64,000 bases of DNA from assembly GCA_016287565.1 (NCBI GenBank), contig JAEFAM010000002.1, forward strand, positions 7,648 through 71,647, written 5' to 3'. Positions 10,508-45,607 of the stretch are shown here, in pieces. Made by a program: the position numbers and the translations under genes. Under the pieces are notes generated by a model. It was not told the origin of the DNA. It searched no databases and was given only the letters and a program-made list of their open reading frames with translations. Numbering within the stretch: position 1 is the first letter of the stretch; each line of letters opens with the position of its first letter. This DNA is from Clostridia bacterium. GTDB lineage: Bacteria; Bacillota; Clostridia; UBA1212; UBA1255.

Positions 10508-11724
10508 TGATTTCGACCTCCTAAAAACAGCAGAACGTTGGACACCTGTGCCTCCGCTCCGTCTTTTATAAACTTTCTGGGGATCCTTTTGCTTAATCCG
10601 CAGATTATTTCGTAATTTATGGTATTTTCCAGTTTCGCCAGTTCTTCGGGAGAAACGGCCTCGTCACCCTGGAAGCCGAAAAGCACCGCCTCGTCTCCGG
10701 CCTTTACGGTCTCGCCCCGGGCGGAAAGTTCCGTCACGTCCGCCAGGCACTGGTCCATGCACACCCGTCCGCGGATGGGCACCCTGGCGCCGTGGATCAG
10801 TATCTCCGCTCTGCCTCCCAGAGATCTGGAATAGCCGTCCGCGTATCCCACGGGCACGGTGGCGATCACCCTGGGCTCTTCGGTCATATAAGTGCAGCCG
10901 TAGCTCAGGAACGTTCCCGCAGGCACTTCCTTCACGGCGGTGATCTTCGCCTTAAAGGACATGGCGGGCCTCAGTTCGAATCCCGGATGCGCCGCCCGGA
11001 CTTCCTGACGGGACACTTCCGAAGGATACAGTCCGTACAATATTATCCCGGCCCTGACCGCGTCAAGATGCATCTCTGGGAACCTCAATATGGCGGCGCT
11101 GTTGGCCGCGTGCCTCAGGGGTATTTTAAGCCCCTTTGCCGCCAGCTCGTCGCACACCTTTGTAAATCCTTCGAACTGGCGCCTGGTATATCCCACGCCG
11201 CTGCCTTCGTCGGAAACAGCGAAGTGCGTGAATATGCCTTCTATTTCAAGATTCGGCAGGGCGGCAATCTCAAGTATGGTATCAACGGTGTCCGGGTCTT
11301 CGCTCCTGAATCCCACGCGGCCCATTCCGCTGTCGATCTTTATATGTACCTTCGCCTTTTTCCCTCGCCTTACCGCCGCGTCTGACACGCTTTTCGCCAT
11401 TTCGGAAGCGAATACGGTCTGAGTTACGGAATAGTCGATCAGTTCCTCCGCCCTTTCCGGCTCCGCGTCGCTTAAGATGAGTATGGGCGCTTCGATCCCG
11501 GCCAGACGGAGCTGCAGCGCCTCGTCGATCTGGGAGACCGCCAGCATGTCGATGCCGTTGTCCAGCAGGCACGCGGCAACTTCCGGCGCCCCGTGGCCGT
11601 AGGCGTCTGCTTTTACTACGCCTATGACGGCGGCTCCGGGGGCGGTGACCCTCCGAACCTCTTTTGCGTTGTGCGCTATGGCGTCAAGATCGATCTCGGC
11701 CCAGGCTCTCGTGTTGTCCAGCAT
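10504..11724 (-). CDS. alr: Alanine racemase
   Basis: PLP-lysine motif VVKADAYGHG, and the overall N-terminal barrel plus C-terminal domain pattern. Confidence 0.85.
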   Translation of the reverse strand: MLDNTRAWAEIDLDAIAHNAKEVRRVTAPGAAVIGVVKADAYGHGAPEVAACLLDNGIDMLAVSQIDEALQLRLAGIEAPILILSDAEPERAEELIDYSVTQTVFASEMAKSVSDAAVRRGKKAKVHIKIDSGMGRVGFRSEDPDTVDTILEIAALPNLEIEGIFTHFAVSDEGSGVGYTRRQFEGFTKVCDELAAKGLKIPLRHAANSAAILRFPEMHLDAVRAGIILYGLYPSEVSRQEVRAAHPGFELRPAMSFKAKITAVKEVPAGTFLSYGCTYMTEEPRVIATVPVGYADGYSRSLGGRAEILIHGARVPIRGRVCMDQCLADVTELSARGETVKAGDEAVLFGFQGDEAVSPEELAKLENTINYEIICGLSKRIPRKFIKDGAEAQVSNVLLFLGGRNQ

Positions 11725-12673: not shown

Positions 12674-13507
12674 TCAGTCCGTTTTGAAGTTTTTGTCGCG
12701 GTTCTTAAAATGCTTCACAATCATTTCCACTATCCCGCTTAAGACGGACAACGCAGCCAGCGCGATGATGACTATCATGATCACGCCGCCAGCGGAAGAA
12801 GTGTTGTTCTTGCCCTCTCCCTCCGGAACTTCGAACTTGATGACGTTGCCGTTGTACGTGGGCACCGGCGTGGCGTTCGGATCCCGCGTGACCTCCGGCG
12901 TCCCGGTCGCATCTGCGTCTTCCGTCGCTTCAGGGTCGATTTCGCCCTTCTCTTCCGGGTCGATCGCGCCCGCTTCTTCCGGGTCAATCGCGCCCGTCGC
13001 TTCCGGGTCCATCGCGCCCGTCTCTTCCAGGTCCATCGCACCCGTCGCTTCCGCCAGATCCGTCAATACGGTCTCCGCCTGCCCCGCCGCATCGAGCGCG
13101 GCAACGTCCGCCATCTCCGCCTCAGCGAGCATGGCAACGTCCGCCTTCTCCGCCTGCTCAGCCTCAGAGAGTGGGGCAACGTCCGCCTTCTCCGCCTCAG
13201 CGAGCATGGCAACGTCCGCCTTCTCCGCCTGCTCAGCCTCAGAGAGTGGGGCAACGTCCGCTATCTCCGCCTGCTCTGCCGCAGAGAGTGGGGCAACGTC
13301 CGCTATCTCCGCCTGCGGGATCTCGCCGGCCTCGGCAAATACAGGCGCGTGAGCGGCGGCGAGGCACAGCACGGCAATGACGATCAGCGCGGCAATAAAT
13401 GCCGCTTTCCTGCTGCCGCAATTTGCTGTTTTCCCGAACCAGCGGTGTTTCATAACAGGCACACACCCCCACGGTGGTATTGTACCATCGAAGGCGTTTT
13501 TTGGCAA
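12674..13507 (-). CDS. Secreted/membrane-anchored acidic tandem-repeat protein
   Basis: Signal-like hydrophobic segment (likely start MKHRWFGK at 13453). Repeats ADVAPLSEAEQAEK/ADVAMLAEAE and a C-terminal TM anchor. The repeats are also visible at the DNA level. Confidence 0.55.
   Translation of the reverse strand: MPKNAFDGTIPPWGCVPVMKHRWFGKTANCGSRKAAFIAALIVIAVLCLAAAHAPVFAEAGEIPQAEIADVAPLSAAEQAEIADVAPLSEAEQAEKADVAMLAEAEKADVAPLSEAEQAEKADVAMLAEAEMADVAALDAAGQAETVLTDLAEATGAMDLEETGAMDPEATGAIDPEEAGAIDPEEKGEIDPEATEDADATGTPEVTRDPNATPVPTYNGNVIKFEVPEGEGKNNTSSAGGVIMIVIIALAALSVLSGIVEMIVKHFKNRDKNFKTD
13100..13320. repeat. In-gene tandem DNA repeats (33 plus 42 bp compound unit) that encode the acidic peptide repeats
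   Basis: GCAACGTCCGCCTTCTCCGCCTCAGCGAGCATG alternating with GCAACGTCCGCCTTCTCCGCCTGCTCAGCCTCAGAGAGTGGG. Confidence 0.7.
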
Positions 13508-13539: not shown

Positions 13540-13815
13540 CTGTGCAAAGTGATCTTCGCCTGCGGCGAGTGATCTTCGGCCTGACGGCCGAGTGATATTG
13601 CGCGGGGCGCAGTGATATTCGCCATACGGCGAGTGGTGTTGCGCGGCGCGAGCAGCTAAATTCGACTTCGTCGAGCGAAATTGAACCCTGACTGTTTAGC
13701 GGGGCTTTTCAGGGTTCAGCTAAATGCGACTTCGTCGCGCTAAATTCGTGCTGTCACACGAGCTAAATTCCGCATTGCGAGCAGTGAAATTCGACTTCGT
13801 CGAGGAAAATTGATC
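13540..13815. repeat. Array of mini-hairpins separated by the conserved octamer GTGATATT/GCTAAATT (top-strand orientation)
   Basis: About 12 units of roughly 20 nt. Each is an 11-16 nt palindrome (for example CGCCTGCGGCG, TGCGCGGGGCGCA, CGACTTCGTCG) followed by GTGATCTT, GTGATATT, GCTAAATT or GTGAAATT. Confidence 0.8.
13681..13719. repeat. Conserved hairpin class 2 (TTGAACCCTGA-loop-TCAGGGTTCAG) followed by CTAAAT
   Basis: 10-bp stem with a 19-nt loop. The same stem with a different loop occurs at 21208..21245. Confidence 0.7.
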
Positions 13816-13885
13816 TTCGGTCGGAGGGATTGATCTCTTCCTTCGCTCATACCAAAGGCCTTGCTCTGTCTCCGAGAGGCAGATG

Positions 13886-14142
13886 AACGAAAAACGCCCA
13901 CATTTTACCGCTCCTTTCAAATTTCTGGGCGTTTTGAAGAAGGACGCTCTGTCTATTAGCTTTAAACGAGCGGAAAACGCCCACATTTTACCGTTTCTTT
14001 CGAATTTCCGGGCGTTTTGAAGAAGGTGGCGCTGCCTCTGAAGCTTGAAATGAGCGAGAAACGCCCACATTTTACCGTTTCTTTCGAATTTCTGGGCGTT
14101 TTGAAGAAGGTGGCGCTGCCTCTGAGCTTGAAACGAGCGATA
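13886..14142. repeat. Three tandem copies of an 83-bp unit, each with a 9-bp-stem hairpin AAACGCCCA-25 nt-TGGGCGTTT
   Basis: Unit starts at 13892, 13975 and 14058, nearly identical. The track ORF 13720..14190(-) is a translation artefact of this repeat. Confidence 0.8.
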
Positions 14143-14189
14143 ATATAGCTGGACCCTGACGTGCTCGAGCAAAAAGCCGGAAGGGTCCA

Positions 14190-14644
14190 ATTTAGCCGAA
14201 GCAGCAGGCTTCGATTTAGCTGTGAGCGCCAGCGAACAATTTAACTGAAGGCCGCAGGTTCCATTGTCTCTGAAAGCCTGCGGTCTTCAGTTTCACTCGC
14301 GCGCCAGCGCGAATTTAGCTCGGCCGTCAGGCCGAATTTAACTGCCGCAAAGAGGCAATTTAGCTTGACGAAGTCGAATTTAGCTGCTCGCCTCGCAAGC
14401 AATTTCGCTCGCGCGTCAGCGCGAACATCACTCCGCGAAGCGGAATATCACTTGCCCGCAGGGCAAATATCACTCGCGCGCCAGCGCGAATTTAGCTCGG
14501 CCGTCAGGCCGAATATCCCTCGCCGCAGGCGAATATCACTCGGCTCCAGTCTGACGTCAGGCCGAATATCCCTCGCCGCAGGCGAATATCACTCGGCTCC
14601 AGTCTGACGTCAGGCCGAATATCACCGCGGCTCCCACCTGCTCC
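14190..14644. repeat. Array of mini-hairpins with octamers AATTTAGC/AATATCAC (opposite orientation to 13540..13815), ending in 2.5 copies of a 59-bp unit
   Basis: Units such as CTCGCGCGCCAGCGCG-AATTTAGCT, CGGCCGTCAGGCCG-AATATCCCT and CGCCGCAGGCG-AATATCACT. The 59-bp unit contains the palindrome CTGACGTCAG. The array abuts the GH3 stop codon. Confidence 0.8.
14247..14288. repeat. Conserved hairpin class 1 (GAARRCCGCAGGYT-CCATTGTCTCTGAAA-AGCCTGCGGYYTTC)
   Basis: 14-bp stem. The loop is identical to the copy at 26787..26828 and differs by one nucleotide (CCATTGTCACTGAAA) from the copy at 24584..24625. Stem differences between copies are compensatory. Confidence 0.8.
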
Positions 14645-21122: not shown

Positions 21123-21205
21123 ATGACACCTCCGGAATGTATTTCGGTTTTTCGTTGGGTCAATTGTACCAAAAAAAGTGGTGGTTGTCCATCGGGAAAA
21201 GCGAA

Positions 21206-21325
21206 TGTTGAACCCTGATATGTTGTCAGAAAATTCAGGGTTCAGCTAAATTCGTCCTGACGAACGAGCGGAATTCGTCCTGGCGGGCGGGCGAAATTGC
21301 TCGCGTGGCGAGCGGCTCTTGTTTA
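21206..21325. repeat. Class-2 hairpin plus a short mini-hairpin/octamer array in the fucI upstream region
   Basis: TTGAACCCTGA-20 nt-TCAGGGTTCAG, then CTAAATT-CGTCCTGACGAACGA-GCGGAATT-CGTCCTGGCGGGCGGGCG-AAATTG-CTCGCGTGGCGAGCGG. Confidence 0.7.
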
Positions 21326-24469: not shown

Positions 24470-24655
24470 ATGCGCGAAGGAAATATTTAGCCGCTCGCCA
24501 CGCGGGCAACATCACTCCGCGAAGCGGAATTTCGCTCGCGCCAAAGCGCGAATTTAGCTGGATCCGCAGGCTTCAATTTAGCTGAAAACCGCAGGCTCCA
24601 TTGTCACTGAAAGCCTGCGGTTTTCAATTTAGCTCGGCATAGAGGGCTATCACTT
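24470..24655. repeat. Mini-hairpin/octamer array plus a class-1 hairpin between convergent genes
   Basis: CCGCTCGCCACGCGGGC-AACATCACT-CCGCGAAGCGG-AATTTCGCT-CGCGCCAAAGCGCG-AATTTAGCT-GGATCCGCAGGCTTC-AATTTAGCT-[class-1 hairpin 24584..24625]-AATTTAGCT. Confidence 0.8.
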
Positions 24656-26329: not shown

Positions 26330-26739
26330 CAGAACCACCTTCCATTCCTCGGAGTAAATATGAATCGGACGGAAGTTCCGGGGACAAAAAAACTCGTCTC
26401 AGAAACGAGACGAGGTCAATGACTTCGTTATACCACTCGGAATTCTGTCGGATTCGGTACGCCCCGGCCCTTTTCCTGCTGAGCCTCGCGCACTTAAATC
26501 TTCCGCCTGTCACGGGACGCCCCGGAGCCGCTTACCACCGTCTCCGGCTTCAGCCGCCCGGCTCAGGAGTGATCTGCTTCCGCCCTTCCTCACCGCATTG
26601 CACCAGACTGCGGCTCTCTATAGAGGACAATGGCGGCGCCCGTCTCCGTCAACGCCGTTACGCGAATTATACTCCTCGTTTCCCGGCGGCGCAAGTGGTT
26701 TTTTGCTCGGGACAATACGCGGCGCGCGGAAGGACATGG

Positions 26740-26856
26740 TGCGCATGGCGCGCAGTGATATTGCTCGCGTTGTGAGCAGCGAAATTGAAAACCGCAGGCT
26801 CCATTGTCTCTGAAAGCCTGCGGTTTTCAATTTCACTCGCGCGTCAGCGCGAACGC
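26740..26856. repeat. Class-1 hairpin flanked by inverted octamers, immediately downstream of trkH
   Basis: CAGTGATATTG...GCGAAATT-[GAAAACCGCAGGCT-CCATTGTCTCTGAAA-AGCCTGCGGTTTTC]-AATTTCACT-CGCGCGTCAGCGCG. On the minus strand the hairpin is followed by UUUUC, so it may also act as the trkAH terminator. Confidence 0.75.
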
Positions 26857-28305
26857 TTACTTCCTCCTCCACAGCCCCGGCGACAATGCCAGGATCAGCG
26901 GATATATCTCCAGGCGGCCGAAGAGCATTGACAGAGAAAGCACGATCTTCGAACCCACGGAGTAGAAACTGTAGCCCATATACGGGCCTACCTTGCCCAG
27001 ACCGGGGCCCACGTTGTTGAGGGTGGCCATTGACGCGGTCATATTCGTTATCATGTCGGTATCGGGTTCGAAGAGGCTGAGCAGCAGGAACACGGAGCCC
27101 AGCACGGCGCAATAGAGAACGAAGAAGGAAGTGACGCCGCGGAGGGTGTTGTCGTCCACGCGCCTGCCCTCGAATTTGACCACGCCGACGGAATGAGGAT
27201 GGACCATGTGCCGAAGGTCGCGGCGGATGATCTTGCCCAGCAGTATCACGCGGGAGACCTTGATGCCGCCGGCGGTTGAGCCGGCGCAGCTGCCAACGAA
27301 ATAAAGCATAAACAATACCGCCCTGGAAATGCCGGTCCAGGTGTCGAAATCGGCGGTGGCGAAACCGGTGGTGGTAACGATCGAGGCCACCTGGAAGAAG
27401 GAGGTCCGGAGATTGTCGCCGAAGGTCTGGTACAGGTTATGCATATGTATCGTAATTATTGCCACGCTGCTGCCGATGATGCCCAGATAGAGCCACAGTT
27501 CGCGGCTTTTAAGGGCGGTCCTGATCTTGCCCATTATCACCAGATAGTACAGGTTGAAATTGACGCCGAACATCACCATAAAGATACCTACGACCCACTG
27601 GATATACGGGTTGTAATTCGTGAGGCTGGTGCCGCTGAGGCCGAAGCCGCCGGTACCCGCGGTGCCGAAGGTATATATCAGGCTTTCGAACAGGTCCATG
27701 CCGCCGAAGAGCAGCATTATTGTCTCGACCGCCGACAGGCCTATGTAGAGCAGGTACAGGATCAGGGCGGTCTTTTTGATCTTGGGAACGAACTTGCCGA
27801 AGGTGGGTCCGGGCACTTCCGCTCTCAGGATGTGCACCGAGCCTTCCGTGTCCGAGGGCAGTATGGCCATCATCAGCACGAGAACGCCCATACCTCCGAT
27901 CCAGTGGGTGGCGCTGCGCCAGAACAGCACGCCCTTGCTCATGGTCTCGAATGACGTGACGACGGAGGCGCCGGTGGTGGTAAAACCGCTGGCGGTCTCG
28001 AAAATGGCGTCAATGACTCCCAGTTCCCCAGTAAAAATAAACGGCAGCGCGCCGAACAGCGTCATCGACAGCCAGGCCAGGGCAACGATAACGAACCCTT
28101 CCTTGGCGTATATGGCGCTTCTCCGCTTGCGGCAGATCAGCATCATAAGCGAACCCACGGCGGCGGCAACTGCGGAAGAAAGCAGTATCATCGACGCAGA
28201 CCGCAGCTCGCCGTAGATAAGCGATACTATGGCGGGGATCAGCATCAGCACCGCTTCCGTATCAAGTATCAAACCTAAAGTGTAAAAAACTCTGCGTCTG
28301 TTCAT
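26857..28305 (-). CDS. trkH: Trk/Ktr-type potassium uptake membrane protein
   Basis: Four selectivity-filter-like repeats (GFTTTGA, GTGGFG, TTTGFAT, GGIKV) and multiple TM segments. Confidence 0.85.
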   Translation of the reverse strand: MNRRRVFYTLGLILDTEAVLMLIPAIVSLIYGELRSASMILLSSAVAAAVGSLMMLICRKRRSAIYAKEGFVIVALAWLSMTLFGALPFIFTGELGVIDAIFETASGFTTTGASVVTSFETMSKGVLFWRSATHWIGGMGVLVLMMAILPSDTEGSVHILRAEVPGPTFGKFVPKIKKTALILYLLYIGLSAVETIMLLFGGMDLFESLIYTFGTAGTGGFGLSGTSLTNYNPYIQWVVGIFMVMFGVNFNLYYLVIMGKIRTALKSRELWLYLGIIGSSVAIITIHMHNLYQTFGDNLRTSFFQVASIVTTTGFATADFDTWTGISRAVLFMLYFVGSCAGSTAGGIKVSRVILLGKIIRRDLRHMVHPHSVGVVKFEGRRVDDNTLRGVTSFFVLYCAVLGSVFLLLSLFEPDTDMITNMTASMATLNNVGPGLGKVGPYMGYSFYSVGSKIVLSLSMLFGRLEIYPLILALSPGLWRRK

Positions 28306-37843: not shown

Positions 37844-38626
37844 TCAGGTCGTCGAGGTGCCGCTGCTTCCGTAGCCCCTCTGGTATTCGTATTTGCCGCC
37901 TTTAAACGATTCGTGGATATCCGGAATGTCGCCCAGATAACGGACGCCGCTGATATTTGCCAGATCCTCGCCGCTCTTCAGGGATGTGTCAAGCATATAG
38001 ATGGCAAGTATCACCGCCACGCTGGCAACCAGTCCGATCAGGCCTCCGATCAGGCCGTTCCTCACCGCGTTGGATTTGTCCGCGCTCCTGGCTCTTGAGG
38101 CGTGGTTGAACACGTCAACGGTGCAGCCGATATACGCGTCTTTTACCATCGTTCCGGCATCTTCCCCTACTATCTCGCAGATGGCGTAGGACAGATCCGG
38201 ATCGTAGGTGGTTGCCTTAACGTGTATGATCTCCGAAGCGTCGGAGTCCGTGGATACTCTAAGGTATTTGCTCAGCTGTGTAGCCGTGACGCCGGCGTAC
38301 TTCTCGTCCTGGGCCCTGAGCTTTTCGGCCATGGACCTGAGGCTGTCGGACTTTTTGATCGCCTTTACGTACAGCGCCGCTACGTTTCGCCTTATATTGA
38401 TCTGCGAGGTGGTGACGGTGGCTTGAGATGACTCGTCGTCCGCCGACTTCATTATCGTATAGAGCTGGATCTCAGAGGTGTAAGTGGGTTTCCAGGTCAG
38501 GCGCGTGACAAGATACGCCGCCAGGGCAAGAACGAACGCGCTCAGGATGACCCAGATGATATTGTTCCAGACTACGAGCAATAACTTACCGAGATCGATA
38601 GCCGAATCTTTCGATTTTTCTTCCAT
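37844..38626 (-). CDS. CpsC/YwqC-type Wzz-domain modulator (transmembrane activator of the BY-kinase)
   Basis: Two TM helices flanking a periplasmic-type Wzz segment; position immediately upstream of the kinase. Confidence 0.7.
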   Translation of the reverse strand: MEEKSKDSAIDLGKLLLVVWNNIIWVILSAFVLALAAYLVTRLTWKPTYTSEIQLYTIMKSADDESSQATVTTSQINIRRNVAALYVKAIKKSDSLRSMAEKLRAQDEKYAGVTATQLSKYLRVSTDSDASEIIHVKATTYDPDLSYAICEIVGEDAGTMVKDAYIGCTVDVFNHASRARSADKSNAVRNGLIGGLIGLVASVAVILAIYMLDTSLKSGEDLANISGVRYLGDIPDIHESFKGGKYEYQRGYGSSGTSTT

Positions 38627-38749
38627 TACTCTTCTCCGATTTTAAAAACATTAAAAAAGCGATGGCATAAAACCACGGATAGGATTTTACCACATTCAGG
38701 GAGGTAAAACAACCCTTTTTTCAATTTGAAAAACCGGCAGATTTGTGCT

Positions 38750-39275
38750 AAATTTAGGGGCGGGGCGCAGTGATATTCTGCTTCGCAGAGTGATATTGCG
38801 CGGGGCGCAGTGATATTGTGCTTCGCACAGCTAAATTACTCGCTTGCGCTCGCAGCTAAATTGCGTGCAGGGCACGCAGCTAAATCGAAGCCGTCCGGCT
38901 TCGGCTAAATTGACCTTCGGTCAGCTAAGCTCGGTTGCGGCGAGTGATATTGCGCGAAGCGCAGTGATATTCTGCTTCGCAGAGTGATATTGCGCGGGGC
39001 GCAGTGATATTCTGCTTCGCAGAGTGATATTGCGCGGGGCACAGTGATATTGTGCTTCGCACAGCTAAATTACTCGCTTGCGCTCGCAGCTAAATTGCGT
39101 GCAGGGCAAATTAAGCTGTTCGCGCCAGCGAACGATATCACTCGGCGAAGCCGAACATCACTCGCACGCAAGTGCGAATATCACTGCGAGTGTTAACGAG
39201 CAATATCACTTGGCGTAGCCGAACATCACTCGCACGCCGGTGCGAATATCACTGCTCATACCAGCGAGCAACAGG
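38750..39275. repeat. Large mini-hairpin/octamer array that switches orientation near 39115 (GTGATATT/GCTAAATT units, then GATATCACT/GAACATCACT units)
   Basis: Units of about 20 nt: TGCGCGGGGCGCA-GTGATATT, CTGCTTCGCAG-A-GTGATATT, GTGCTTCGCAC-AGCTAAATT and so on. A 150-bp block (38760-38910) is duplicated at 38950-39110. The right arm reads CGGCGAAGCCG-AACATCACT, CGCACGCAAGTGCG-AATATCACT. Confidence 0.8.
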
Positions 39276-42961: not shown

Positions 42962-44158
42962 TCAGAGCCAGTAAAGTTCTTCGAATATGGACATTGCGTA
43001 GGCGTCGGTCATGCCGGCTATGTAGTCGACGGTGATCTGTTCCGGAAGCGTTCCGGGCTCATACGCTTTTTCCTGTATGTACTTGATAAGGCGGGTGTCC
43101 AGGCGGTCGGGACCGTCGATGGAAGACATATCGAGGGCGCCGTATGAATCGACCTTGTCCTCCGCCTTGCCGAGCAGAGCGCAGACGCGGTTGTAGACCG
43201 CTTCGAAAAGGCCTTCTACGATGTTGTTGGTATTGGCCTCGTACCGCTTGATCATATCGGACTTGTATATCTTTTTGTAGTTCAGCTCGATCATCTCGCG
43301 CAGTGCCTGGCCGCACTCGTCGCTGAGGCGGATCTCGTCACGCTGGTAGCTGTTCTCCAGAAGGTCCTCCACCAGGGTGTTGATCATCTGGCCGTTGGTG
43401 GCGCCCAGCGTGGAACGGATGTCCTCCGGAATGCCGCTGTAGTCCATCATCTTGGCCCTGATGGCGTCTTCGATGTCCCGGCCCACGTAGGCTATCTTAT
43501 CCACCAGCCTCACCACACAGCCCTCCATAGTGGCAGGCATCTCCACGCGGTGCTCGCAGGTGTATATCTTCGACGGATCCTTTTTTCTGTTGGGCCGCAG
43601 GATGTATTCGTCAACGTTCTCGCCGCAGTGGCTCACGATGCCGTCCCGCACTTCGTACGTCAGGTTCAGGCCGCACTTGGACAATATCTTCTCCTGCGAT
43701 ATGCGGGTGGAAAGGCGGTCAACGACTCTCAGGCTGTGATATTCATGGCGGAACCGCAGCGCCGGATTGACCTTGTTCAGGCACTGATCCAGCTTTCTCT
43801 CGCCGCTGTGGCCGAAAGGCGCGTGGCCTATGTCGTGGCCCAGGGCAATGGCGGAGATCAGATCCTGGTTCAGCCCGAGAGTCCTGCCTATGGTGGTGGA
43901 TATGGAATTCACATACAGGACGTGCTCCATGCGGGTGCACACGTGGTCGTTCTTGGCGTTGAAGAACACCTGCGTCTTGTGCCTCAGCCGCCTGAAATCC
44001 TCCGAGTAGAGGATCCTGTTGGCGTCACGCTCGAATATTGACCGAACGTGGCATTCGGGCTCGTCGCTGAGGCGGCCCTTGCTGTCTCTGGCCCTGGTGG
44101 CCAGGGGGCTCAGCGTTTCTTCCTGTTTTAATCTTATCTCGCGCCAGGTCTCCGGCAT
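42962..44158 (-). CDS. dGTPase-like HD-domain deoxynucleoside triphosphate triphosphohydrolase
   Basis: HD motif ALGHDIGHAPFGH and overall dGTPase architecture. Start at ATG 44158 (MPETW) with AGGAGG Shine-Dalgarno. Confidence 0.75.
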   Translation of the reverse strand: MPETWREIRLKQEETLSPLATRARDSKGRLSDEPECHVRSIFERDANRILYSEDFRRLRHKTQVFFNAKNDHVCTRMEHVLYVNSISTTIGRTLGLNQDLISAIALGHDIGHAPFGHSGERKLDQCLNKVNPALRFRHEYHSLRVVDRLSTRISQEKILSKCGLNLTYEVRDGIVSHCGENVDEYILRPNRKKDPSKIYTCEHRVEMPATMEGCVVRLVDKIAYVGRDIEDAIRAKMMDYSGIPEDIRSTLGATNGQMINTLVEDLLENSYQRDEIRLSDECGQALREMIELNYKKIYKSDMIKRYEANTNNIVEGLFEAVYNRVCALLGKAEDKVDSYGALDMSSIDGPDRLDTRLIKYIQEKAYEPGTLPEQITVDYIAGMTDAYAMSIFEELYWL

Positions 44159-44169
44159 TGGCGACACCT

Positions 44170-44640
44170 CCTGTTGTTAGTGGGAAACGGGAAATGGCAA
44201 GTGGCAAATGGCAAGTGGGAAATGGAAAATGGCAAATGGCAAGTGGGAAATGGAAAATTATATTTTCCTCATTTTCAATCTGCACTTCTCGCTTTGCGTT
44301 TTTCAATTTCCGATTTGCAATTTCCAATTTGCAATTCTCAACTGGCAAGTGGGAAATGGCAAGTGGCAAATGGCAAATGGGAAATGATAATATCCTTTTC
44401 TCCTTTTCGATTTTCAACTATTCACTTGCAATTTGCAATTTCCAATTTGCAATTTTCTATCTTCCCCTTTTAATTTGCAATTTGCAATTTCCAATTTGCA
44501 ATTTTCAATTTGCAATTTCCAATTGTCACTTCGCAACTTTTAATTTGCAATTTGCCATTTGCAATTTGCAATTTTCAATTTGCAATTCTCCATTTGCCAT
44601 TTGCCATTTGCCATTTGCAATTTGCAATTTGCAACTAATC
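44170..44640. repeat. 470-bp intergenic block of heptanucleotide tandem repeats G[CG]AA[AG]TG alternating with complementary-orientation blocks CAATTT[GC]/CATTTGC
   Basis: Block 44175-44265 is (GCAAGTG/GCAAATG/GGAAATG/GAAAATG)n. Block 44300-44335 is (CAATTTC/CAATTTG)n. Block 44336-44385 is again (GSAARTG)n. Block 44420-44640 is (CAATTTG/CCATTTG)n. The track ORFs here (44025..44417, 44158..44679, 44174..44473, 44559..44771) are repeat translations. Confidence 0.85.
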
Positions 44641-44641
44641 C

Positions 44642-45607
44642 TCACGCCCACCACATCTCTCCCGCCTGCTCGAATATGAGCACTTCCTTCAGGAATTCGA
44701 TGGCTTTGTTGAGGCCTTCTTTGGGAGACATCAGCGAATCTTCGTGCTCGATGCTCACCACGTCGTCGTAGCCCACTTTCTTGAGCATGCTGACGATCTC
44801 TTTCCAGGTGGCAAGGTCGTGGCCGTAGCCCATTGTGCGGAACACCCAGGCGCGGTGGAGCACGTCGCCGTAATGCTTGGTGTCCAGCACGCCGTTCTTA
44901 GCTACGTTGGCGTCGTCCAGCTTAACGTCTTTGCCGTGGAAATAATATACGGCGTCGCCCAGTTCGCGGATGGCTTCCACCGGATCCATCCCCTGCCAGA
45001 ACAGGTGGCTGGGATCCACGTTGGCGCCGATCATATCTCCTACCGCCGCTCTCAGTTTAAGCAGCGTTTCGGGGTTGTACACGCAGAATCCGGGGTGCAT
45101 CTCGAATGCGATCTTCTCGATACCGTGGGCAGCGGCAAATTCGGCGGTCTTCTTCCAGTAAGGGATCAACACTTCGTTCCACTGGTAGTCCAGTATCTTC
45201 AGGAAATCGTCGGGCCAGGGGCAGGTCACCCAGTTGGGATATTTGGAATCGGGGCAATCTCCGGGGCAGCCCGAGAAGCCTACGATGCGCTTTACTCCAA
45301 GCTTTTCCGCCAGCAGTATGGCGTCGATGAAATCCTCGTGGAAGGCCGAAGCCACTTTCTTATCCGGATGCACGGGGTTGCCGTGGCAGGAAAGCGCGGA
45401 GATCTCCAGGCCGTTGCCGCAGATGGCGGCCTTGAACTCGTCGAGCTTTTTGGGATCGGAAAGCAGGACCTTGGGGTCCGCGTGAGCCTTGCCCGGGAAG
45501 CCGCCGCAGCCTATCTCTACGCACTGCACTCCCTGGCCTGCCAGGTATTTCATGGCGTCCGCCAGTTTCATCTCGCCTAAAACTACGTTAAAAACTCCTA
45601 ATTTCAT
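44642..45607 (-). CDS. Xylose-isomerase-like TIM-barrel sugar phosphate isomerase/epimerase
   Basis: AP-endonuclease-2/xylose-isomerase fold pattern (IEHED, metal-binding His/Glu/Asp positions). Confidence 0.6.
   Translation of the reverse strand: MKLGVFNVVLGEMKLADAMKYLAGQGVQCVEIGCGGFPGKAHADPKVLLSDPKKLDEFKAAICGNGLEISALSCHGNPVHPDKKVASAFHEDFIDAILLAEKLGVKRIVGFSGCPGDCPDSKYPNWVTCPWPDDFLKILDYQWNEVLIPYWKKTAEFAAAHGIEKIAFEMHPGFCVYNPETLLKLRAAVGDMIGANVDPSHLFWQGMDPVEAIRELGDAVYYFHGKDVKLDDANVAKNGVLDTKHYGDVLHRAWVFRTMGYGHDLATWKEIVSMLKKVGYDDVVSIEHEDSLMSPKEGLNKAIEFLKEVLIFEQAGEMWWA

Follow-up and report, generated by a model that had tools for sequence, protein, structure and literature searches.

We analyzed a window of 64,000 nt (the whole stretch of DNA presented above) and observed that the 42-nt hairpin at 26787-26828 probably represents one long-hairpin unit type of Gut-1 tandem arrays and, where it is functional, may act in the transcript as a weak terminator. 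Judged from its sequence, the hairpin is a unit of the arrays and not a separate element, that is, an oversized variant unit within the known but uncharacterised Gut-1 kind. The preliminary description had reported three such hairpins in the window, and all three were found at their positions, with the loop letters CCATTGTCTCTGAAA, or CCATTGTCACTGAAA in the 24584 copy, that it had given:

14247-14288, minus strand: hairpin copy 1, within array B, 357 nt past the stop codon of the GH3 gene (14645).
24560-24574, minus strand: half-copy unit GAAGCCTGCGGATCC (sense strand), adjoining copy 2.
24584-24625, minus strand: hairpin copy 2, 24 nt past the stop codon of the AMP-binding gene (24650-24652); covariance-model score 90.2 bits.
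26787-26828, minus strand: hairpin copy 3, 29 nt past the trkH stop codon; covariance-model score 84.5 bits.

A fourth copy lies ~60 nt past a stop codon at locus L061/L132, and L061 was assigned to the same genome since the adjoining MnmA comes from the same MAG (GCA_016648615.1) and JGI sample as the TrkH of the window. The hairpins are real and far beyond chance: the fold z-scores of the window copies range from -3.8 to -8.1, none of 200 shuffles folds equally well, and a covariance model scores the three window copies at 84-90 bits. In a repeat search, these three copies form one 71-nt repeat family with 75-90% identity. Copies 1 and 3 have in common a 71-nt block at 90% identity, which includes the neighbouring unit, and differ by four stem bases; a single loop base separates copies 2 and 3. 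In copy 1, the U-tract is decayed and the sense strand shows two A.C mismatches. All four copies are sense-oriented behind the upstream gene, three of them within the first three units past the stop codon and, likewise in three of the four, at a distance of 24-60 nt from it. As previously described, AATTTAGCT-type octamer arrays contain or flank the copies (31 matches with at most one mismatch, 9.6 expected; 0 of 100 shuffles equal), and the octamers around the 26787 copy are inverted, lengthening its stem to ~23 bp (26778-26837 with linkers). We also confirmed UUUUCAAUUUCGCU directly after this copy on the minus strand, and the half-copy GGATCCGCAGGCTTC at 24560-24574. The half-copy retains the 3'-arm core AGCCTGCGG, with a AGCTAAATT linker on either side, and has the appearance of a duplicated hairpin unit shortened by deletion.

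The array unit consists of a 9-nt A/U-rich linker (AGUGAUAUU, AGCUAAAUU or AGCGAAAUU) and a short G+C-rich palindrome of 11-16 nt (stem of 4-6 bp, loop of 3-4 nt), with a unit period of 20-25 nt in our array parse. The commonest linkers are AGTGATATT (19 occurrences), AGCTAAATT (16) and AGCGAAATT (6). The Rfam search that the preliminary description had proposed gave a clear answer, as the arrays score as Gut-1 RNA (RF01706), with three array segments at or above the gathering score of 50 bits (66.1, 54.2 and 51.5 bits) and several more just below. The arrays of the window are the following:

13546-13822, plus strand: array A, opposite to and converging on array B; Gut-1 match of 41.1 bits at 13610-13686 (+).
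14142-14634, minus strand: array B, ~20 units, sense to the GH3 gene; Gut-1 match of 66.1 bits at 14397-14475 (-).
21195-21315, plus strand: small array F, upstream of the fucose-isomerase promoter, opening with a long GAACCCTG..CAGGGTTC hairpin.
24479-24642, minus strand: array C, in which four or five short units accompany copy 2 and the half-copy; Gut-1 match of 45.8 bits.
26741-26856, no single strand: array D, with a sense unit CGCGCTGACGCGCG and linker at 26829-26856, copy 3, and two inverted units at 26741-26786.
38769-39108, plus strand, and 39109-39261, minus strand: converging arrays E and E2; Gut-1 matches of 54.2 and 51.5 bits.

We observed what defines Gut-1, at least three tandem short hairpins with a GUGAAAU-like single-stranded linker, and the 42-nt hairpin fills one slot between two linkers; in the array parse, it is bounded by linkers in all copies. 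A sub-threshold Gut-1 match (14234-14344, minus strand, 36.2 bits) takes in copy 1 as an enlarged hairpin, and the 45.8-bit match lies immediately behind copy 2 (24480-24560, minus strand), array C coming after this copy in the sense direction. Copy 3 forms the centre of array D, between one sense and two antisense units. No Gut-1 match covers copy 3 or copy 4, the hairpin by itself staying below 50 bits, and the long CCGCAGG hairpin is absent from arrays E and E2. The hairpin is not alone in recurring between arrays, as units such as CGACTTCGTCG, GCGCGGGGCGC, CTGCTTCGCAG, CGGCCTGACGGCCG and TGCCCTGCGGGCA do so too. In total, the ~103 kb of genome inspected contains four hairpin copies and seven array regions.

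The arrays begin 0-20 nt past a stop codon and finish ~15-20 nt before the next -35; array A, for instance, ends just upstream of the promoter-like site (13507-13479) of the minus-strand gene 12674-13507. Units are co-oriented within each array half and their palindromes differ, while the two halves are inverted relative to each other and point to a centre whatever direction the next gene takes. Half of the arrays are oriented against the next gene, and their Gut-1 strand would not be read from the upstream gene. The arrays grow by block duplication, the blocks being 115 nt long at 99% identity and 53 nt long at 96%. In the CGCGC-loop-GCGCG and GAACCCTG-loop-CAGGGTTC unit families, stems are kept and loops vary. 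The array stems are nearly all Watson-Crick (136 pairs, against 4 G.T and 6 A.C), with no strand-specific G.U signal, and therefore fit DNA-level palindromes as well as RNA. By these features of their sequence, the arrays behave as an expanding intergenic repeat.

The description of Gut-1 goes back to reads from the human gut (Weinberg et al. 2010, PMC2864571; RF01706), and the sole comment made on it at that time, one sentence of the supplement, is that it occurs in no sequenced organism (PMC2864571). The alignment published then contains, in order, a stop codon, a terminator-like hairpin with A-run and U-run that abuts the first linker, a sense array and an opposite array, and heptamer runs occur nearby (PMC2864571). 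We found no later literature on Gut-1, nor any on the source assemblies. The arrays analyzed here resemble this family in their tandem short hairpins with a conserved linker of the GUGAAAU/GUGAUAUU type, in their location between convergent gene ends, often right behind a terminator-like hairpin, and in the sense-then-antisense layout with neighbouring heptamers. By contrast, the family model comprises three short hairpins, for which the 42-nt hairpin is oversized (36.2 bits against 50), and the AGCUAAAUU and AGCGAAAUU linkers are here as frequent as AGUGAUAUU. Moreover, Gut-1 is filed as a small-RNA gene, whereas here it is a dispersed repeat present in seven intergenic regions in ~103 kb. 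Gut-1 has the look of a dispersed array of repeats more than of a gene for a small RNA.

A preserved structure with a preserved loop had been proposed to mark a specific RNA or single-stranded DNA recognition element, in which the loop sequence is under selection and the stem merely needs to pair. It is true that the loop is identical in two copies and differs by one base in the third, that copy 1 carries one genuine compensatory pair (A-U to G-C), and that the motif UUCAG..AAUGG is retained in all four copies. However, this A-U to G-C change is the lone compensatory pair among the 17 of the stem, 12 of which never vary in the four copies, and 148 of 500 shuffles match the observed covariation, so that the co-varying stem was not borne out. 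The two other stem differences of copy 1 give a G.U on the plus strand and an A.C mismatch on the gene-sense strand. The near-invariant 15-nt loop did not hold either: around half of its positions are paired on the gene-sense (minus) strand, the strand of the Gut-1 orientation, UUCA with UGG(G), and the retained positions are those that pair mutually. This leaves an apical loop of 6-7 nt that does vary, with three variants in the four copies (GAGACAA twice, GUGACAA and GGAUAA once each).

Copy 4 differs from the other copies by ~3 events in 14 loop positions and, in the outer stem and linker, by ~2 differences at the 27 positions left free by the search pattern, which was stem-anchored and inflates apparent stem conservation. 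As far as the data reach, this copy varies more in the loop, and a loop varying as freely as the stem was what the preliminary description had named as evidence against selection on it. The absence of loop differences between copies 1 and 3 is itself unremarkable, since ~1.5 would be expected in 15 nt at 10% divergence. Three recent paralogues cannot demonstrate the invariance of a loop, and such similarity is what recent duplication predicts; the common loop reflects recent shared ancestry together with half of it being stem on the gene-sense strand. More generally, a few paralogous repeat units can mimic a conserved loop and a covarying stem without any selection on the loop.

Searches for further copies led in the same direction. 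A loop-anchored scan (GYTCCATTGTCNCTGAAAGCC) of 185,579 GTDB species genomes recovered no true copy, only two chance matches without a stem, and the same pattern had no match in viral contigs. A stem-anchored scan of metagenome contigs (CCGCAGGYTN{13,17}AGCCTGCGGT) returned at least 117 loci, almost all unrelated hairpins, the pattern being too permissive; L061 was the only true relative among the matches listed. The covariance model suggested as a check could be built from the four copies, but the search with it of 213 kb of the genome and its relatives yielded no new members, other long array units giving weak matches at most. No predicted protein spanning the hairpin was identified when its six-frame translations were compared with an index of 5.8 billion proteins. 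Considering also that relatives lack the hairpin at the same loci, we regard recognition of a selected loop as highly improbable. A small ORF starting from an ATG in the loop was considered as well and rejected, the frames being 7, 7, 14 and 45 aa long with no common conserved product.

We then considered a promoter within the hairpin, TTGAAA-16-GACAAT on the sense strand, with TTGAAA formed by linker and 5' arm and its -10 in the so-called loop, which would drive the array units as a Gut-1 small RNA ending at the centre. The conserved positions of the loop would then be those of a -10 element. A promoter scan calls this site on the minus strand of copies 2 and 3; GACAAT is present in three copies and GATAAT, nearer to the consensus, in the fourth, the variable loop positions lying just outside it. 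In three of the four copies, array units come next in the sense direction, and Gut-1 is classed as an independent small RNA (PMC2864571). On the other hand, conservation does not extend to the -35, which reads CTGAAG in copy 1 and, at a spacer of 15-16 nt, TAGCAA or ATAGCA in copy 4, and the -10 lacks its first T and has no TG extension. The units behind copy 3 are antisense, with a far better promoter 93 nt further on, and the complementarity of the spacer to the downstream sequence would be left unexplained. A promoter role thus appears quite unlikely.

Linkers themselves resemble -10 hexamers (TAAATT in AGCTAAATT, GATATT in AGTGATATT), which is why promoter scans call sites inside arrays, for example at 21223-21252 and 38726-38754. 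The latter site, TTGAAA-17-TAAATT with a TG extension on the plus strand, directly precedes array E in the Gut-1 orientation, in divergent arrangement with the promoter region that serves the Wzz-like gene 37844-38626. It could give a stand-alone array transcript.

In the preferred reading, an array unit acting in the transcript, the functional part takes its support from strand and position. In all four copies, folding is favoured on the sense strand, by ~3-5 kcal/mol over the antisense strand, with a sense-strand stem energy of -16 to -23 kcal/mol and a loop of 6-7 nt. If the hairpin has a functional site, it would most likely be the transcript of the upstream gene, in which a 16-23-bp hairpin with a 6-7-nt loop would be followed by UUUUCA(A/G). 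Such a structure may serve as a weak, partly bidirectional intrinsic terminator and as a block to 3'-exonucleases. Indeed, the copies sit at the ends of transcription units, and copy 3 lies between trkH and a conserved T-box promoter:

26857-28305, minus strand: trkH, upstream of copy 3, in the operon rho-trkA-trkH.
26403-26661, minus strand: T-box leader of the AMP-binding gene, 66.5 bits (E = 3e-14), below the Rfam gathering score of 93.

The T-box promoter (TTGCGC at 26694-26689, 17 nt, TATAAT at 26671-26666) sets a limit of ~160 nt within which the trkAH transcript has to end. Between the trkH stop codon and this promoter, no terminator-like structure other than copy 3 with UUUUCAAUUUCGCU is present, and the T-box leader has its own canonical terminator at 26414-26393. 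Copy 3 would thus keep the trkAH transcript apart from the downstream T-box-controlled gene. The suggestion that the 26787 copy terminates trkAH is therefore plausible by position; its terminator score is borderline, +1.5 compared to +24 and +26 for two canonical terminators of the window with the same formula, which is of the d'Aubenton-Carafa type and gives approximate scores that are comparative only. On this scale, the sense strand of copy 4 reached +11.6, copy 2 -3.2 and copy 1 -55, the last because its U-tract is lost, and all antisense scores were negative. Tail scores were 3.2-3.5 for copies 2-4 and 0.74 for copy 1, against 4.5-5.0 for the canonical terminators. The hairpin shares with intrinsic terminators a G+C-rich stem, A-run and U-run flanks (GAAAAC...GUUUUC) and a location between transcription units. 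It differs from them in its short U-tract (four U, then C), absent in copy 1, and in its loop, which is 15 nt on one strand and 6-7 nt after stem extension on the other. At best, these features would make the hairpin a weak terminator or 3'-end stabiliser. The borderline scores, the relative L123 without a hairpin behind trkH, the array stems without strand bias in wobble pairs and the arrays oriented against the next gene count against this reading. In the T-box locus itself, we noted that the leader precedes an AMP-binding (acyl-CoA/adenylate-forming) gene and not an aminoacyl-tRNA synthetase.

To place the arrays in their lineage, we compared the same loci in relatives. In three relatives with 81%, 74% and 72% identical TrkH, synteny and the T-box promoter are kept (the T-box leader and promoter being conserved in relatives L123 and L125), and neither a Gut-1 array nor the hairpin was found behind trkH. 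Its place is taken by an A/C-rich spacer in one relative, by a heptamer array starting from the stop codon in another and by an extra gene in the third. The hairpin is thus dispensable in relatives, as none is present behind trkH, for example in L123. At the copy 4 locus, the convergent genes overlap in a relative with 86% identical MnmA, compared to an array-filled gap of 470 nt here. Even in strain L002, with 98.5% DNA identity over 6.5 kb, array C is missing, and the two sequences diverge ~2 nt past the stop codon of the AMP-binding gene. From there (L002 6544-7688, window 24648 downward), array C, copy 2 and the sigma-factor cassette beyond it give way to a heptamer run and another gene. 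Overall, relatives whose proteins are 72-86% identical lack the arrays at the corresponding loci. From the source names attached to homologues of TrkH and MnmA, the organism was judged to be an uncultured member of the Clostridia, and sortase, DnaD/DnaI-type loaders and Rho are among its genes.

This distribution bears on a second reading of the arrays, in which the hairpin is a selfish or neutral DNA palindrome of the REP/REPIN kind without any RNA role, spread by slippage, gene conversion or an enzyme such as a RAYT (REP-associated transposase) and retained only in free intergenic DNA, and its position behind genes only reflects where insertions are tolerated. We consider this possible, if unlikely. 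It would account for nearly perfect palindromes without strand-specific wobble, for arrays that reach ~15-20 nt before the next -35 and converge regardless of the direction of the flanking genes, for array growth by block duplication, and for differences in array presence that extend to a near-identical strain and to close relatives; the inverted linkers around copy 3 also recall a REPIN doublet. Nevertheless, each of the four hairpins has the orientation of the gene upstream of it, and the better fold is always that of the sense strand. No domain of a transposase, Y1 (tyrosine) transposases included, was found among the Pfam-annotated genes of ~120 kb. Within an array, the units follow one another in tandem and in one orientation, unlike the alternating order of BIMEs, the REP clusters of E. 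coli. Plasmid and phage collections gave no match to the element, a result that counts against a selfish repeat and on which we also rejected an origin from a mobile element.

The hairpins are paralogous copies that spread together with the arrays by block duplication and unit exchange, and the arrays are a lineage-specific filler from the stop codon to the next promoter, in which respect they are similar to REP elements. It is rather unlikely, in our estimate, that the arrays make up an undescribed repeat system of uncultured gut Clostridia, together with the CCGCAGG and GAACCCTG hairpins, the covarying 84-nt module and the related heptamer arrays, in which a dedicated enzyme or binding protein would recognise the linker or a long hairpin and build the arrays outward from gene ends, with the 42-nt hairpin as its seeding or recognition site instead of a passive unit.

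Several known repeat systems were compared with the arrays. REPs may stabilise the upstream mRNA and attenuate transcription, and REP clusters combine a constant palindrome with alternating orientation. The hairpin is, as expected of a REP, an extragenic imperfect palindrome within 20-40 nt, and like REPs, BIMEs and REPINs, the palindromes described here are extragenic, clustered behind genes and strain-variable, with copy 3 and its inverted linkers as the doublet-like case. In contrast to REPs and BIMEs, the units are co-oriented in tandem, with a variable palindrome and a constant linker, and do not show the alternating orientation. In addition, no RAYT was observed among the Pfam annotations of the sampled loci, and the host is a Firmicute. 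The Correia elements (CREE) of Neisseria are small intergenic inverted repeats, strain-variable, with promoter-like activity and terminator or RNA-processing hairpin activity; they are discrete units of 100-155 bp with target-site duplications. Unlike the hairpin, they are not units of tandem arrays, and they have no sequence similarity to it. CRISPR arrays, with 23-55-nt repeats, unique spacers and cas genes, come to mind because constant and variable short segments alternate regularly here. A CRISPR array was rejected, as the constant part is only 9 nt long, the "spacers" are recurring palindromes and the annotated neighbourhood contains no cas domains.

Listed since 2010 as an orphan small-RNA gene known from gut reads alone, Gut-1 is now seen in a contiguous genome, where it behaves as a dispersed array of hairpin units, specific to its lineage, which converges on a centre and occupies the space from stop codon to promoter. 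The question therefore shifts from what a small RNA regulates to what builds and maintains the arrays, and the MAG GCA_016648615.1 together with its array-free close relatives provides a concrete comparison set. The wider value lies in the arrays around the hairpin more than in the hairpin itself, the result on which serves as a caution.

Other repeats were observed in and near the arrays, among them a larger module between arrays A and B:

13875-14125, no strand assigned: an 84-nt module, present three times in tandem at the centre on which arrays A and B converge.

In each module, a stem with a 25-nt loop is preceded by an A-run and followed by a T-run, and a single homologue is located at the centre of the mnmA-locus arrays of the same genome (L132 ~11220-11330). 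The module hairpin (AAAACGCCCA/TGGGCGTTTT compared to AAATACATA/TATGTATTT) has 4 compensatory pairs out of 10, a number equalled in 3 of 500 shuffles, and the 25-nt loop and the 3' flank GAAGAAGGnGGCGCTGCCT remain similar. On this comparison, the 84-nt module makes a better case than the 42-nt hairpin for a loop conserved over a covarying stem. The arrays also contain a second long-hairpin family, in which a constant stem, GAACCCTG..CAGGGTTC, goes with unrelated loops of 15-19 nt, and in two of its L061 copies the loop itself holds the linker AGCGAAATT:

Window 13683-13717 and 21210-21243, with a variant at 14151-14188: GAACCCTG family.
L061 1124-1160, 1279-1320 and 1553-1587: GAACCCTG family.

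The minus-strand gene 12674-13507, next to array A, encodes a highly repetitive protein with periodic repeats of 24, 33 and 42 nt and no Pfam match. Finally, long arrays of 7-nt repeats (GGCAAAT, GGGAAAT, GGCAAGT) with blocks in both orientations occupy window positions 44150-44650, filling the gap from a stop codon (44642) to the ribosome-binding site of the next gene, and heptamers were also found at L127 11474-11560 and L002 6545-6600. The heptamer GCAAATT resembles the Gut-1 linker GC(T/G)AAATT. The same heptamers begin at the trkH stop codon in one relative and at the stop codon of the AMP-binding gene in the near-identical strain, and the same 27-nt sequence GGCGAACCGAGTGATGGCACGAATTTT follows both.
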